A stretch of DNA of 64,000 nucleotides from a phage: sequence record PX068455.1; one strand, written 5' to 3'. Of this stretch, positions 1 to 13,443 are shown in pieces; the first letter of the stretch is position 1, and the number at the start of each line of letters is the position of its first letter. A program made the position numbers and the translations under genes. Under the pieces are notes generated by a model, which saw nothing but the letters and a program-made list of their open reading frames with translations, did not search any database and had not been told where the DNA came from.

Positions 1-128
1 GGCGGACGAAATGGGAATACTTCTCATTCTTATAACAATTCTCAAATATCAAGGCAGTGAGGCAAATTAATAGGTGAGGCCGTTCACACAGTGGCACAAC
101 ATTTGCAACCTATCTTGTGTGGAGGAAT

Positions 129-162
129 GAGAATACCTATCATTGTGAGAACCATTATCATT
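129..162. repeat. Two tandem copies of 16-bp motif GAGAAnnnnTATCATT
   Basis: gagaatacctatcatt and gagaaccattatcatt read directly; same motif recurs near 12357 and 12493. Confidence 0.5.
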
Positions 163-434
163 ACGGGCAATTTAACATAATACCCATTATGCGCACCACT
201 GGCGATACATACAGGGATTGATAACATGAGTTACTGTTTACGCATATAACAATTATATTTCTTACTATTTGTGTGGGATATAGTTAGCAACCAATAGATT
301 AGATATTGACCTGCAGACTTCTGACCGTCCAGACGTCTAAACGCCCACACACCAAGGGTTATACATACATTCCTGAATGTAAACAGGGCCGCAAAAATGC
401 TACCATACCAGTTTGTAAATTTTTCATGCAGCAC

Positions 435-546
435 TTGACAAAGAGGAGAAAAACTTGTCTGACACTTTTGCCACTTTTGACACTTTTACCTTTGACACAA
501 TGTCACACAATATGCCATAATCTGACACCTTATACACTTTCGACAC
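435..546. repeat. Cluster of imperfect direct repeats (T)TTGACAC / TGACAC
   Basis: About six copies (ttgacaa, ctgacac, tttgccac, tttgacac x2, tctgacac, ttcgacac) spaced 10-20 bp in a gene-free region. Confidence 0.5.
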
Positions 547-2766: not shown

Positions 2767-2795
2767 ATGTTACCTCACCCCATGGCAGATGTCAA
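2767..2795 (-). promoter_or_regulatory. sigma70-like promoter TTGACA-N17-TAACAT
   Basis: Hexamers read on minus strand upstream of the 2712 start; coordinates approximate. Confidence 0.45.
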
Positions 2796-2826
2796 CGGTT
2801 TTTATAGTTCTTATATGACAGGCAGG

Positions 2827-2843
2827 CCCGGTGATTGTCTCCC
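2827..2843 (-). repeat. Third copy of core motif GGGAGACAAyCACCGGG (minus orientation)
   Basis: Plus strand reads cccggtgattgtctccc, the reverse complement of cores at 12321 and 12455; intergenic. Confidence 0.5.
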
Positions 2844-2929
2844 CCTGTTCCCAAGTGCCGCCCGTTTAATAAGAATAGCAAAAGGGGCCGAACAAGTCAA
2901 CCCCAAAATCAGTACCAAAACACTTTTAT

Positions 2930-10197: not shown

Positions 10198-10539
10198 TTA
10201 CTCGTTTTCTTCCAGCTCTGAAAGCTCTTCTTTCACTTCTTCGAGCTCTGTCTGCAATTCTTGGTACTCTTCATCGTCCTCAATATCCAGGCTGTCGATG
10301 TAGTCGCTAAATCCGCAGCGGTAAGCGATAGGATCTAGCTCCTTGAGGATACGCGACGGAAGAAAAGAAATGTTTCCGATCATAATTTCGCCGTAGATCT
10401 CGTCTAACCATTCATCATAGTTTTCGTCGTACTTGTCCTCGTCGATTTCAAAGTTATCGATCTTGTTCTCAAGGTCTGCGATCTGTTTTTTCAGCGCGGC
10501 GATCTGCATAGCTTTTTCTGCGGCGGTCATAGTAGTCAT
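10198..10539 (-). CDS. highly acidic coiled-coil protein (113 aa), possible DNA mimic
   Basis: Very high Asp/Glu content (EEVKEELSELEENE tail); own promoter and leader hairpin. Confidence 0.5.
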   Translation of the reverse strand: MTTMTAAEKAMQIAALKKQIADLENKIDNFEIDEDKYDENYDEWLDEIYGEIMIGNISFLPSRILKELDPIAYRCGFSDYIDSLDIEDDEEYQELQTELEEVKEELSELEENE

Positions 10540-10590
10540 GGTGTTTTCTCCTTTTGTGTGTTCTGGGAAGTTTTCCCGTTTACGTGTTTA

Positions 10591-10618
10591 AGTATACCGA
10601 TTTGGGTTAGCTTGTCAA
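10591..10618 (-). promoter_or_regulatory. sigma70-like promoter TTGACA-N16-TATACT
   Basis: Read on minus strand; followed by hairpin GGGAAAACTTCCC and SD AAAGGAGA. Confidence 0.55.
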
Positions 10619-10738
10619 TTAAAAATTTAAGAAAAATTTTGCAAAACTGTTGGCGCTACTCATTAACATTTGCGCCAGGATGTAACCGACAACGCAAACG
10701 ATAATAGTTACCTTTGTGTATTGGCGTGTAGTGCTCAT
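10619..10738 (-). CDS. small membrane peptide (39 aa), not in ORF track
   Basis: ATG preceded by AAAGGGGG, just downstream of module copy 3; MSTTRQYTKVTIIVCVVGYILAQMLMSS... read manually. Confidence 0.35.
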   Translation of the reverse strand: MSTTRQYTKVTIIVCVVGYILAQMLMSSANSFAKFFLNF

Positions 10739-10772
10739 CTTAAAGCCCCCTTTTTCGCTTAGTTGAGACTAG

Positions 10773-10817
10773 TTTACTTTATTGATGGCCCTGGAGTCAA
10801 GGCCATCTAAAAATAAA
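10773..10817 (-). promoter_or_regulatory. Conserved 45-bp promoter/operator module, copy 3
   Basis: Identical 45-mer; TTGACT within inverted repeat GATGGCC/GGCCATC. Confidence 0.5.
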
Positions 10818-10818
10818 C

Positions 10819-11223
10819 TTAGTAAGTTTTCAGTACTTTACCGTCCAACCTGTCAAGCTGGATCTCGATAGCTGCAGAAAACCTATTGTACACCACGTCG
10901 CCCATAGAATCCAACCAATCTATGACGTTATACACCTGCTCTTTGTTCTTACAGGTCCGGATCCGTTTCATGATGTAAGCCGGATCAATATTGGTACTCT
11001 CGTCGGTGTTCCCCTGTACCTGGTTTGCCGTATTAGTTACATCTTTAATGGCCTTTACCACCACCTGGAAGGGCTTTAAGGTACCTTTTGCGTTCATCTC
11101 ACGCGCTTTTGCGGCGCGGTTGTTATATGTTACACAACGGCGGCAAATGTTGATCAAATGCATGTCAATAATTTTTTCATCGTTTGCCAGTTCATTCATG
11201 ATGCGGCGTACGTTCTTATTCAT
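10819..11223 (-). CDS. hypothetical protein (134 aa)
   Basis: ORF 10819..11322 trimmed to ATG at residue 34; the in-frame upstream part contains promoter and leader hairpin. Confidence 0.5.
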   Translation of the reverse strand: MNKNVRRIMNELANDEKIIDMHLINICRRCVTYNNRAAKAREMNAKGTLKPFQVVVKAIKDVTNTANQVQGNTDESTNIDPAYIMKRIRTCKNKEQVYNVIDWLDSMGDVVYNRFSAAIEIQLDRLDGKVLKTY

Positions 11224-11306: not shown

Positions 11307-11705
11307 TTATTCGTGGGCGCATGTTACAATGTGCTTTTTATAGCCCAGGCGGTCAGCAAGTGCCGACAAAAACTCTTCTTCGTAGATCCAGCCGTCGGCA
11401 GTGATCCCCATAGCATTTAATGCGCTCTCAAGTGCTGCGTTGGCTTTATCATAACCGTGACCGCTCGCCTTGCCTCCAGTATAGCCGTACTTATTGTTCT
11501 TGTTGTCGTGTATCCAAAAAACGCAGTAGTGAGTGTTCCCGCTGGCGGCGGCATAATACCGGATCTCAGCTACTTCGTGCAAATTATTGTCATCGTCCAG
11601 GCCCACCAGATTATAAGCCTTGTAAAATCCACGATCACGGCGGCAGTTCTTGACATCAGAAAAAGAAAAGTCCGCATTATCAAAATTAAAGGTAGTGGTT
11701 TTCAT
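11307..11705 (-). CDS. hypothetical protein (132 aa)
   Basis: ORF track. Confidence 0.5.
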   Translation of the reverse strand: MKTTTFNFDNADFSFSDVKNCRRDRGFYKAYNLVGLDDDNNLHEVAEIRYYAAASGNTHYCVFWIHDNKNNKYGYTGGKASGHGYDKANAALESALNAMGITADGWIYEEEFLSALADRLGYKKHIVTCAHE

Positions 11706-11769
11706 GATTTTATCCTCTTAGTGTCTTTTGTGCTTTTAGTGTATTTGGTGTCGGACTGTATGTCAATAC

Positions 11770-11967
11770 TTATTTTTTATTAAACCAGTGGTTGATCTGG
11801 CCTTTTGTCAGGGCGCAACGATTAAGCTGTTGCCGAGTATAGCTCTGACCGCGACGGAATTTATAAAGGCCTTGCCCGTTGTTGATGGTTACATCCACCC
11901 GGCAAACCATTTGATCGGTGACCACCTGGCGAGTGTTGCGACGTACTTTGATTCCGTAGGCGTTCAT
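11770..11967 (-). CDS. small basic protein (65 aa)
   Basis: ORF track; SD AGAGAGGAT upstream; weak TTGACA-N17-TATTCT promoter. Confidence 0.45.
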   Translation of the reverse strand: MNAYGIKVRRNTRQVVTDQMVCRVDVTINNGQGLYKFRRGQSYTRQQLNRCALTKGQINHWFNKK

Positions 11968-12320
11968 GATTTTTTATCCTCTCTGTTAATTGGTGTGGTG
12001 TTGTTCACCTTGCGAGGATAAGAATAACAATAACTGTACGAGCTGTCAACCATTAGTTAGAATTATTTTTTTTGGGCAGAATTCTCCAGCCGCCGCCCCT
12101 ACCAGGTTAACCATCGTTTTTTCGTACTCTTCTTTATGTTCCAACGCTCCCGCCATAGCCTTTTCAACCAGGGCGATAGCCTCAGCGTCATTAATCGCTA
12201 CATTTCCAGGGGATCAAATTACCTTTCATTTTTGTACCTCCTCTTCAATTGTTACCTGCCCTATAGCATAGGCCTACCAGGTTTGCAAGCTTTCACTCTC
12301 ACGGCAGGCACCGGTGACGG

Positions 12321-12372
12321 GGGAGACAACCACCGGGGATGGGCGCTGCATAAAATGAGAACGGTTATCATT
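12321..12372 (+). repeat. Bipartite repeat unit A: core GGGAGACAACCACCGGG plus GAGAACGGTTATCATT
   Basis: Read directly; core sits inside palindrome CCGGTG..CACCGG; gene-free region. Confidence 0.5.
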
Positions 12373-12454
12373 ATCATTTAAAAATTTATGCAAAAAATCC
12401 TTGCTTTCTTTGTCCTGTGTGATACTATAATAACAAGCCGGGGCAACAGGGGCC

Positions 12455-12508
12455 GGGAGACAATCACCGGGGGTGCCCGTTATTCTGCAAACGAGAATGA
12501 TTATCATT
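12455..12508 (+). repeat. Bipartite repeat unit B: core GGGAGACAATCACCGGG plus GAGAATGATTATCATT
   Basis: Second copy ~134 bp after unit A with the same ~20-bp core-to-module spacing. Confidence 0.5.
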
Positions 12509-12638
12509 CAAAATTCTAAATGAGAACTTTTCGCATTTCATAAATTTAGTTAGCATGCTAATTACCTACCGTGACAATTCTATATAAAATAATACCTCCT
12601 TAAATATTTCCATATACAAATTTTAAAAATCCATTTCC

Positions 12639-12802
12639 GAAAACGAAAAATCGATTTCGTCCCCAAAAATTTCAGGTCGAGCTCCGGAACGATTTCCAGA
12701 AAATCTGATTCAGAAAACGAAAAACAGATCGAGTACTAAGAAATTTATCGAGAAAAATTTTCAGAAAATTCAATCTTTGAAACGAAAAACAGATCGAGTA
12801 CT
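12639..12802. repeat. Iteron-like direct repeats ACGAAAAACAGATCGAGTACT
   Basis: Two exact 21-bp copies (~12717 and ~12782) plus a partial copy (~12639), in AT-rich non-coding DNA. Confidence 0.55.
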
Positions 12803-13040
12803 GAGAGAGATGTATCAAAACCTACTGAGAATAATGGGCTTATTGTTATAAAAGGTCAAAGGTAAGCTGGGAAAGTTCTGGTAGAAGGGTGAGGGTATGT
12901 GCGGAAAATCTGGAATAGTAACTTAAAGTACGGTGCGAACGATAGAATGAGCAGCACATCTTATCGCGCCTGTCTTGAAAAATCCATTTTAGTTTTCGAT
13001 CCATTTTCTGATTTTCTAAGAATTTTAAAATATCCGGCCA

Positions 13041-13082
13041 GGTAAAATATCAAAAGGAGGAAATCCATTTTAGAAATCCTCC
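13041..13082 (-). terminator. Rho-independent terminator
   Basis: GGAGGA..TCCTCC hairpin followed on minus strand by TTTTGATATTTT, ~30 nt after the 13114 stop. Confidence 0.45.
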
Positions 13083-13113
13083 TTATACTTGATGTGCCAG
13101 GGATTTTCAAGTA

Positions 13114-13443
13114 TCAACTGTCTTTGTTTTTAGGCTTGTGCATACGTAGAGGTATGGTCTTTATAACATTCCATCTACCCAACCCCTCCCAGTTCCAATT
13201 GTGAGCGTGATACCCGGTTATGCATGCACTGCTGGCGTGATCATAAGCATAAGAGAACGCTATGCGAACCAAGTGGGGCCAGTCCCTCCACGGCTGTGGA
13301 CCGTAAGCCTTCCTCCAACACCGACACAAACTAATTGTCTCAAGAATAGGTAGAATAACAAATCCATATACCGCCACCAAAATGGTCAGAGCAATGATTG
13401 TCAGGAATACATACCCTGCAGTTGAAATAATGATCTCTGTCAT
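13114..13443 (-). CDS. membrane protein (109 aa)
   Basis: Hydrophobic N-terminal segments (FLTIIALTILVAVYGFVILPIL). Confidence 0.5.
   Translation of the reverse strand: MTEIIISTAGYVFLTIIALTILVAVYGFVILPILETISLCRCWRKAYGPQPWRDWPHLVRIAFSYAYDHASSACITGYHAHNWNWEGLGRWNVIKTIPLRMHKPKNKDS

Follow-up and report, generated by a model that had tools for sequence, protein, structure and literature searches.

What is the role of a 1.1-kb stretch without a credible open reading frame (ORF) in an otherwise tightly packed phage genome? The stretch spans positions 11968 to 13113 of a 64,000-nucleotide (nt) window, a term used here for the whole piece of phage DNA that was analysed (sequence record PX068455.1). 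An inspection made from the letters alone (the sequence-only reading) had described a duplicated bipartite unit, iteron-like repeats, and a palindrome, and had offered a replication origin, a regulatory hub, or a non-coding RNA (ncRNA) locus as explanations. All of the features that it listed are present at or near the positions where it had placed them, and a regulatory hub with non-coding transcription is the option favoured by conservation, promoters, and negative coding tests. With about even confidence, we propose that rV5-like phages have here a conserved control hub that encodes no protein and in which rightward non-coding transcription would be gated by iron through the host regulator Fur.

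From left to right, the hub begins with the promoter of the left operon and a disrupted ORF, continues with tandem rightward promoters, leaders, and Fur boxes, and ends with a repeat array, a spacer, and the right-operon terminator. Each leader is followed by one or two 19-base pair (bp) Fur boxes. Judged by their sequences, the two halves of the bipartite unit are separate modules, namely the core of what we call element B and a Fur box, and they are independent of each other because a third copy of the core lacks a Fur box. The features on which the argument turns are as follows, with the Fur boxes assigned by consensus match.

10 to 28, 126 to 144, and 144 to 162, no strand: putative Fur boxes in the left terminal repeat, within a 459-bp direct terminal repeat
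2790 to 2900, minus strand: element B copy 3 (core of the GGGAGACAATCACCGGG type, 2827-2843), with promoter TTGACT-17-TATTCT and hairpin CUUG-GGAA-CAGG
12021 to 12049, minus strand: sigma-70 promoter of the left operon (gene 11770-11967), −35 TTGACA at 12049-12044, 17-nt spacer, −10 TATTCT at 12026-12021
12053 to 12229, minus strand: disrupted small ORF, phrog_21957, with GGAGG at 12237-12241 and ATG at 12229-12227
12300 to 12301, no strand: junction of a 130-bp deletion that is unique to the window among the aligned genomes
12301 to 12350, plus strand: unit 1, element B copy 1, with GNRA hairpin CCG-GUGA-CGG at 12311-12320, core GGGAGACAACCACCGGG at 12321-12337, and no promoter of its own in the window
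12354 to 12378, no strand: putative Fur box 1, AATGAGAACGGTTATCATT, including a second register at 12360-12378; 16/18 consensus matches at 12354-12372
12401 to 12431, plus strand: sigma-70 promoter of unit 2, −35 TTGCTT at 12401-12406, 16-nt spacer, extended −10 TGaTACTAT at 12423-12428
12429 to 12485, plus strand: unit 2, element B copy 2, in which CCGG at 12438-12441 pairs with CCGG at 12453-12456; core GGGAGACAATCACCGGG at 12455-12471, 3′ segment TGCCCGTTATTC
12490 to 12508, no strand: putative Fur box 2, AACGAGAATGATTATCATT; 17/18 consensus matches, invariant in 13 Vequintavirus genomes
12519 to 12537, no strand: putative Fur box 3, AATGAGAACTTTTCGCATT; 15/18 consensus matches
12541 to 12513, minus strand: weak promoter ATGAAA-17-TAGAAT, between Fur boxes 2 and 3

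Apart from the 130-bp deletion, Escherichia phages ECP2303 and ECP2309 share 100% identity with the window over the 1.7 kb compared (11700-13400), and this identity places the window phage with their group in the genus Vequintavirus (rV5/FV3 group); numbering is shared by the window and ECP2309 as far as 12300. Within the genus, the units are 96-100% conserved among 12 relatives (unit 1, 99-100%; unit 2, 12429-12485, 96-100%) compared to 72-96% for the flanking genes. Beyond it, unit 2 together with its Fur box retains 80-89% identity in Seunavirus, Mydovirus, Certrevirus, Henunavirus, and Phapecoctavirus, and the flanks have diverged. The alignment with related phages that the sequence-only reading had called for thus reveals repeats that are shared across genera and a region that is conserved more strongly than its neighbours: element B, the Fur boxes, and the three-unit array are kept across Vequintavirinae and Stephanstirmvirinae above the conservation level of the flanking genes. 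A BLAST search of 5426 Escherichia coli genomes yielded no homologue of the unit, and a host origin for it was dropped on this ground.

The second half of the bipartite unit, GAGAAnnnTTATCATT, forms the inner part of a 19-bp palindrome, AATGAGAATnATT(A/C)TCATT, and by consensus match it is a putative Fur box of the 9-1-9 type. The sequence-only reading had noticed this half-motif at 12354-12372 and 12490-12508 (GAGAA...TTATCATT halves); a further copy lies at 12519-12537. The consensus applied here draws on boxes from Xanthomonas, Shewanella, and Bacillus and on an information-theory model for E. coli. Specifically, the Xanthomonas consensus is AATGAgAATcATTctCATT, and the Shewanella and Bacillus boxes, AATGATAATnATTATCATT, share the 9-1-9 register (PMC1790865). 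In the E. coli model, a 19-bp 9-1-9 unit is the minimal Fur site, and sites form clusters or overlaps that are offset by 3 or 6 bp (PMC2189734). Such a cluster is formed by the registers at 12354 and 12360, which overlap at a distance of 6 bp. Box 1, in the form GAGAACGGTTATCATTATC, shares 16/19 positions with the classical GATAATGATAATCATTATC box when the latter is read as its reverse complement, and the orthologous box of phage PVP-SE1 agrees at 18/18 specified positions and differs solely at the weakly conserved central base.

The boxes are also far more frequent than expected and are confined mostly to two places. The palindrome AATGAGAATNATTCTCATT, with up to three mismatches allowed, has five matches in the 64 kb compared to 0.05 expected. 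At the same stringency, the whole genome (136.9 kb) contains sites at 12354, 12360, 12490, and 12519, three in each terminal repeat, and two weak ones inside genes. Window positions 1-459 are the left copy of the terminal repeat, the other copy being ECP2309 136405-136863 (locus L161), and the first box starts only 10 nt from the start of the record. Relatives carry two to four boxes per locus. The two halves of a box often differ (GAGAAT versus GATAAT) without compensation, which fits a protein operator on DNA rather than an RNA hairpin.

The first half of the bipartite unit, GGGAGACAAyCACCGGG, is the core of a ~55-nt element that we term element B. This 17-nt core was correctly located by the sequence-only reading at 12321-12337 and 12455-12471, and the copy at 2827-2843 on the minus strand had escaped it. 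There are three matches in the window when up to three mismatches are allowed, compared to 0.18 expected, and these same three (12321, 12455, and 2827-2843) are the only occurrences in the genome. All copies have orthologues in Vequintavirinae (Seunavirus, Mydovirus, Certrevirus, and Henunavirus) and Stephanstirmvirinae (Phapecoctavirus and Justusliebigvirus). Element B consists of a small 5′ hairpin, a single-stranded-looking core (GAGACAAyCACCGG), and a pyrimidine-rich tail. Copy 3 is succeeded by a second promoter (TTGACA-17-TAACAT, P168 in the rV5 annotation) and then by gene 2440-2712 in sense orientation.

Each copy of element B is located 25-35 nt downstream of a sigma-70 promoter. A promoter with invariant A2 and T6 is found at a constant distance upstream of the element in every genus and for all three paralogs, and the spacers have diverged. 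These conserved promoters support the plus-strand orientation that the sequence-only reading had assigned to the units, which opposes that of the minus-strand flanking genes. For unit 2, an alternative −10 (TATAAT) can be read from the sequence at 12426-12431. Given this context, element B may be a promoter-proximal leader, and it could instead be a DNA site. The put RNAs of phage HK022 are promoter-proximal, cis-acting antiterminator RNAs with two stable stem-loops. Element B resembles put in being a short, conserved, non-coding element that is present in few copies per genome just past early promoters, but only a single small hairpin of element B has support, its folding is not significantly stable, and its sequence is unlike that of put.

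The 130 bp that are missing at 12300/12301 are present in ECP2303, ECP2309, and all 13 aligned relatives. Besides CCAGGTT repeats, they held two promoters: TTGCAA-17-TAGAAT and the strong TTGACA-17-(TG)CACAAT of unit 1, the latter of which is retained in 13/13 aligned relatives. There is no obvious microhomology at the flanks of the deletion, which could be a natural variant or an artefact of assembly or editing.

Three further observations concern the surroundings of these promoters. In other genera (L004-L007 and others), the −35 of the element B promoter is preceded at ~10-15 nt by a conserved direct repeat, TTGTAAAGAnTTGTAAAGA or its reverse complement, and so is the second promoter in L166-L169. 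The repeat may serve as an UP-like element or bind an activator. To the left of unit 1, at least seven copies of a (C)CCAGGTT or CCTGGT motif surround the promoters (12098-12108, 12273-12283, and positions 2102-2215 of relative L001). This motif often abuts the −35 as CCAGGTTGCAA and holds a Dcm site (CCWGG), and the stretch that carries it is indel-prone among relatives. In other genera, a different conserved element with its own promoter, element A, stands where unit 1 would be, some 150-230 nt ahead of element B (L004-L007, L009, L013-L018, L020, L024, L028, and L031). Its sequence is CGCCACCCCACGGCG-AAAA-GGCGGGGC...ACCAGG-loop-CCUGGU...GGAUCGCCGGUAG, with a hairpin CGCC-ACCCCAC-GGCG whose loop can pair with downstream GGGG or UUGG in a pseudoknot-like covariation; its second hairpin also shows covariation. 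No Rfam family matches element A, which resembles a phage RNA not described before.

The analysis shows the sequences themselves, how conserved they are and how often they occur, which promoters accompany them, how well they match the Fur consensus, and that a coding signal is lacking; that transcription occurs, that Fur binds, and that the transcript has a role is what we infer. In the mechanism that we envisage, host RNA polymerase would start early non-coding transcripts in the rightward direction, against the flanking genes, with element B at their 5′ ends. Fur-Fe2+ would bind the boxes at about +60 to +110, where it would block elongation into the array, repress the promoters that lie among the boxes, or do both, and passage of the polymerase through the hub would thereby depend on the iron status of the host. 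Alternatively, with phage DNA being replicated, the approximately ten boxes per genome could titrate Fur off host genes. Iron-dependent ribonucleotide reductases are among the products of the phage genome, a plausible reason for the phage to care about iron.

Several observations weigh against this proposal. With respect to the plus-strand promoters, the boxes lie at ~+60 to +110 and not over the −35 and −10 as in classical repression. The copy of unit 1 seems dispensable because its promoter has been lost in the window genome. Each copy of element B is also 65-80 nt upstream of a further promoter, and thus the element could equally be an upstream regulatory site. RNAalifold, applied to a MAFFT alignment of 18 unit-2 sequences, returned only the Fur-box palindrome and a 3-bp helix, with essentially no structure in element B. 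Folding energies relative to dinucleotide shuffles were not significant for unit-2-type copies (z of −0.2 to −1.7), the value for the unit 1 copy being −2.6. The 5′ and 3′ flanks of element B showed no covariation in a partner-swap test, which suggests that it may act as a DNA site rather than as RNA. No plus-strand terminator that would delimit a discrete small RNA was found in the region, and the literature searched on this phage group held no transcript, transcription start site, or Fur-binding data.

Some evidence for RNA structure is nevertheless found at the 5′ hairpin, and a structured ncRNA, the third option of the sequence-only reading, is weakly supported. For unit-2-type copies, 44/20000 permutations in the partner-swap test were as good as the true partners, a figure that is inflated by sequence relatedness. 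Pairing is kept there through the changes GCGA/UCGC, GCGC/GCGC, CGCA/UGCG, CGGC/GCCG, and CCGG/CCGG. Copies of the unit-1 and unit-3 types carry a CCYG-loop-CRGG hairpin with a loop that is often GNRA, and its stem shortens on both sides jointly in unit 1 and in the ZCKP1 copy. The U-G pairs of these hairpins on the plus strand are C·A mismatches on the opposite strand, which favours an RNA made from the plus strand. Two other helices did not survive. A hand-built outer helix (AUGGCG/CGUCAU plus extensions) was dropped when true flank pairs gave −11.9 and swapped pairs −13.1 kcal/mol, and a helix across the conserved core ('P2') was unsupported, with 3644/20000 permutations being as good. MAFFT placed helices in three different registers. 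The covariance-model search that had been advised matched no Rfam family: nothing in the window reached the gathering score, and the E-value mode returned chance-level matches only, none of which was credible at E≤10 in ECP2303 or at E≤1 in four other genera.

The placement of the boxes raises the possibility that the minus strand is the functional one. The Fur boxes would then be operators of a Fur-repressed leftward promoter serving the small ORF and the left operon, either ATGAAA-17-TAGAAT (12541-12513) or TTGAAT-18-CAGAAT across box 2. The units would be the long 5′ leader of that promoter or an antisense partner of plus-strand RNAs. Boxes 2 and 3 indeed bracket the −35, spacer, and +1 of the weak promoter-like site, which is the classical layout for Fur repression. 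Moreover, TTGAAT-18-nAGAAT recurs in ~7/11 sequence types from other genera, and the flanking genes are all on the minus strand. However, the −10 varies at the critical A2 position (CAGAAT, CTGAAT, CGGAAT, and GGGAAT) and hence resembles a hexamer of a Fur box more than it does a conserved −10. The left operon has a strong promoter of its own at 12021-12049 (scan score 10/12 with a TG extension, scanned in relative L001 at 1850-1822, which corresponds to window 12049-12021). Copy 3 of element B lies in sense behind a promoter and has no Fur box, and the U-G pairs of the hairpins again favour the plus strand. We therefore regard this explanation as improbable.

The claim that 11968-13113 has no credible ORF holds, with one caveat, the disrupted 58-amino acid (aa) ORF at 12053-12229 on the minus strand. 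A 2-nt deletion in the window lineage introduces a stop after 12 codons of this ORF. It is annotated intact (177 nt) in FV3, FFH2, Bas51, and BP9, the corresponding coding sequence of Alma is shorter (168 nt), and Murica lacks the ORF. Even where it is intact, there is no codon periodicity, with 18/20/19 variable columns by codon position. Several relatives annotate ORFs in the region, and these annotations are mutually inconsistent. The strongest case for a protein-coding gene is the minus-strand ORF 12274-12507, which covers both units, matches phrog_14993 with an E-value of 1e-48, and is annotated in FV3, FFH2, Bas51, and rV5_ev147. In most genera, minus-strand stop-free runs of 75-123 codons cross the element; these probably reflect the GC-rich conserved elements.

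Against a gene at this place, a 14-genome alignment gives 35/43/38 variable columns at codon positions 1/2/3 of ORF 12274-12507, and its indels are mostly 1-2 nt and do not preserve the frame. Its ATG falls within a Fur box and is not preceded by a Shine-Dalgarno sequence, starts of the ORF over the units are inconsistent across genera (ATG, TTG, and GTG), and the size of the 130-bp deletion is not divisible by three. The ORF was rejected for inconsistent annotation, lack of periodicity, and frame-breaking indels, as were a plus-strand 48-aa ORF (12899-13045) and minus-strand ORFs at 12846-13110. A leaderless peptide from a ACAUGGCG start was rejected as well, its ATG being missing in half of the genera and its frame not being kept. 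Both phrog_14993 and phrog_21957 may be spurious families, built on ORFs called over non-coding units or on a doubtful mini-ORF. The neighbouring proteins tested belong to PHROGs of no assigned function.

A degenerate tRNA in the conserved 76 nt is the other form that such an explanation might take. A tRNA-Met is annotated there in Klebsiella phage K45PH128C2, and the Klebsiella phage record OY978796 lists tRNA-Met, tRNA-Ile, and tRNA-Lys at the homologous place. However, ARAGORN detects no tRNA either in the window or in the seven related loci searched, OY978796 among them, and Rfam gives no match; the tRNA reading was dropped accordingly. In OY978796.1 (L004), the tRNA-Lys, -Ile, and -Met features at 10349-11044 overlap elements A and B as well as a neighbourhood of protein genes, and they probably sit at wrong coordinates because ARAGORN finds none there. 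A coding gene or a tRNA is thus exceedingly improbable and in effect rejected.

The exact Fur box AATGAGAATGATTNTCATT is present in more than 120 unrelated IMG/VR viral contigs among the matches listed (L033-L150), whereas by our own rough estimate a few would be expected by chance. Among these listed matches, 115 loci were analysed. The box is outside ORFs (≥70 aa) in 93 of them, at least two boxes occur within 400 nt in 57, and the median ORF-free gap around the box is 419 nt. Many share a fixed arrangement, TTGACA-N17-TAAAAT-CGGCGCCnC-box, with the box coming directly after the −10. In 12/115, the box lies beside perfect DnaA boxes (TTATCCACA) in ORF-free stretches of ~0.6-2 kb, including in T5-sized contigs. 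Contigs with DnaA boxes include L037, L083, L087, L090, L108, L118, and L120, all of which except L083 are 108-120 kb, the size of T5, and in the 108-120-kb contigs a GC-rich hairpin, GGGGGCGC...GUGCCCCC, precedes the Fur box.

In the literature searched, phage Fur boxes were found only upstream of cargo operons of temperate phages and none on virulent phages or in non-coding hubs, and nothing relevant was found on Vequintavirinae transcriptomics. The boxes of temperate phages, such as those upstream of sitABCD in lambdoid coliphages, are of the same 19-bp 9-1-9 type, AATGA(T/G)AATnATT(A/C)TCATT, and are presumably read by host Fur. Here, in contrast, the phage is virulent, no iron-uptake or toxin cargo gene lies downstream, and the boxes are clustered in two non-coding places, the hub and the terminal repeat, downstream of promoters without ORFs. 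Fur-repressed small RNAs of the RyhB/PrrF type are likewise non-coding transcription units with Fur boxes. However, in the RyhB type the box overlaps the promoter and a Rho-independent terminator stands at the end, whereas the boxes in the window are downstream and there is no terminator, and the unit has neither a BLAST homologue in E. coli nor an Rfam match. The nearest concept in the literature searched is 'lytic deferment' (PMC9437464), in which phages that infect Alphaproteobacteria carry CtrA-binding sites; there, too, sites for a host global regulator in phage control regions would read host physiology. The regulator in that case is CtrA and the signal the cell cycle, whereas here they would be Fur and iron, and none of the phage genes is under obvious control. 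Sites for host regulators on phage DNA are therefore already known, and Fur boxes in a non-coding hub of a virulent phage are apparently undescribed.

To the right of the Fur boxes, the region contains the following features.

12550 to 12578, plus strand: palindrome TTAGCATGCTAA and weak candidate promoter, with −35 TTAGCA in the palindrome, 17-nt spacer, and −10 GACAAT at 12573-12578
12620 to 12806, plus strand: three-unit array of 59-74-bp units, each GAAAA(A)TTTT ... internal hairpin ... GAAAACGAAAAACAGATCGAGTACT
12807 to 12975, no strand: variable, weakly constrained spacer, identity 64-85%, 1-nt indels, 29/31/34 variable columns by phase
12976 to 13053, plus strand: nearly invariant AT-rich block with two exact ATCCATTTT copies (12982 and 12999)
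13040 to 13084, minus strand: candidate intrinsic terminator of the right operon (gene 13114-13443), stem AAGGAGGA at 13054-13061 and TCCTCCTT at 13077-13084

The 21-bp iterons of the sequence-only reading, ACGAAAAACAGATCGAGTACT, are exact at 12717-12737 and 12782-12802 and have a partial third copy from 12643, but they form the ends of the larger 59-74-bp units. The exact 21-mers lie inside 55-nt units of 78% identity, and the array units as a whole are 72-78% identical. Unit 1 of the array has a hairpin ACGAAA/TTTCGT at 12643-12660, and the sequence of the internal hairpin varies among units. Conservation of the array is 87-97% within the genus. Homologous three-unit arrays ending in GATCGAG(A/T)AC are found in Seunavirus, Mydovirus, and a Phapecoctavirus-like contig (L013), and Henunavirus-like and Certrevirus-like contigs (L008 and L010) have similar arrays whose units end in a variant motif. 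By this comparison, nearly all of the 'iteron' array and of the units is common to other genera.

Could the hub be an origin that is activated by transcription? The tandem promoters would fire into the AT-rich array and generate an R-loop or a primer, the 21-mer units would serve a phage initiator as iterons, with Fur in the part of a host accessory factor. In the primary origin of T7 and in oriF and oriG of T4, initiation is primed by transcription, and promoters fire into an AT-rich segment with nothing encoded behind. The layout of the region, from promoter to AT-rich DNA, is like theirs, but those origins have neither Fur boxes nor element B. Here, tandem rightward promoters precede segments of 70-80% AT and three conserved repeat units: AT content reaches 78-80% at 12501-12550 and 12601-12650, as in an AT-rich unwinding region, and is 70-74% across the array. 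The array has no credible gene and is conserved across genera, the genes for DNA polymerase and primase/helicase lie within the same 25-kb stretch, and DnaA boxes adjoin Fur boxes in the 12/115 listed loci mentioned above.

Other findings speak against such an origin. No TTATCCACA-like DnaA box was seen on reading the region (no formal scan was made), and no adjacent initiator gene was identified. Iterons would be at least three direct repeats of 17-22 bp in helical phase; the two exact repeats and one partial repeat are instead 65-74 bp apart (65 and 74 bp from start to start), not one or two helical turns, and the internal hairpins are variable. The GC-skew analysis that the sequence-only reading had suggested shows no change of sign at 12-13 kb. 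According to the rV5 paper, GC skew in this phage only tracks the direction of transcription, and for this reason it is uninformative on the origin. In the related phage Bas54, an intergenic region without transposon insertions separates oppositely transcribed genes, but this fits the region by the terminal repeat rather than 11968-13113. The large non-coding region by the terminal repeat has GACACTTTTG-type and (G)TTTACAC-type repeats (440-660 and 1040-1110). Combined with ~1.4 kb from the right genome end, it is flanked by convergently oriented genes and probably represents the ~2-kb insertion-free intergenic region of Bas54. On balance, an origin at 11968-13113 seems unlikely, although it is the main rival of the iron-gated hub and deserves to be kept in view.

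The remaining features to the right of the boxes include several that the sequence-only reading had described. Its 12-bp palindrome, TTAGCATGCTAA, is present at 12550-12561, but about half the relatives carry a T>C change that breaks it and is not compensated. The weak candidate promoter there matches at 8/12 positions, which is under the scan threshold, and is co-located with a third promoter of other genera that is clear in L004-L006. Three of the four reported copies of ATCCATTTT are exact (12982, 12999, and 13063), and the fourth, at ~12630, is the imperfect ATCCATTTC; the motif has six copies in the window compared to 1.4 expected. The invariant block 12976-13053 resembles the GAAAATCCATTTT part of repeat units in other genera. 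Adjacent to it, the hairpin 13054-13084 is a probable intrinsic terminator of the right-hand operon: its loop carries the third ATCCATTTT copy, the minus strand then continues with the T-rich TTGATATTTT, and the block is ~100% conserved, near-invariance extending over 12976-13090. A simple terminator scan misses it because the loop exceeds 8 nt.

An iron-gated hub in rV5-like phages may be one instance of a wider practice. Tentatively, and with less than even confidence, we suggest that clustered operators for host Fur are carried on purpose by virulent phages from many lineages, both in their non-coding control regions and at the ends of their genomes. The rV5-like phages would combine such clusters with element B, which occurs in three copies close to promoters and fits no known family of RNAs or operators. 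The combination would form an iron-sensing or Fur-titrating switch that gates early non-coding transcription and possibly the start of replication, and lytic development would thereby be tied to the iron status of the host. The presence of the same perfect box in many non-coding viral loci suggests a general, apparently undescribed use of a host global regulator by phages. Phages of the rV5 type are broad-host-range candidates for therapy and biocontrol in which ~70% of the genes and all of the non-coding DNA are unexplained. If Fur does bind, this would provide a concrete handle on a conserved non-coding hub that is common to two phage subfamilies, and the outcome of infection could vary with iron, of which there is little in the gut and during infection but plenty in laboratory media.

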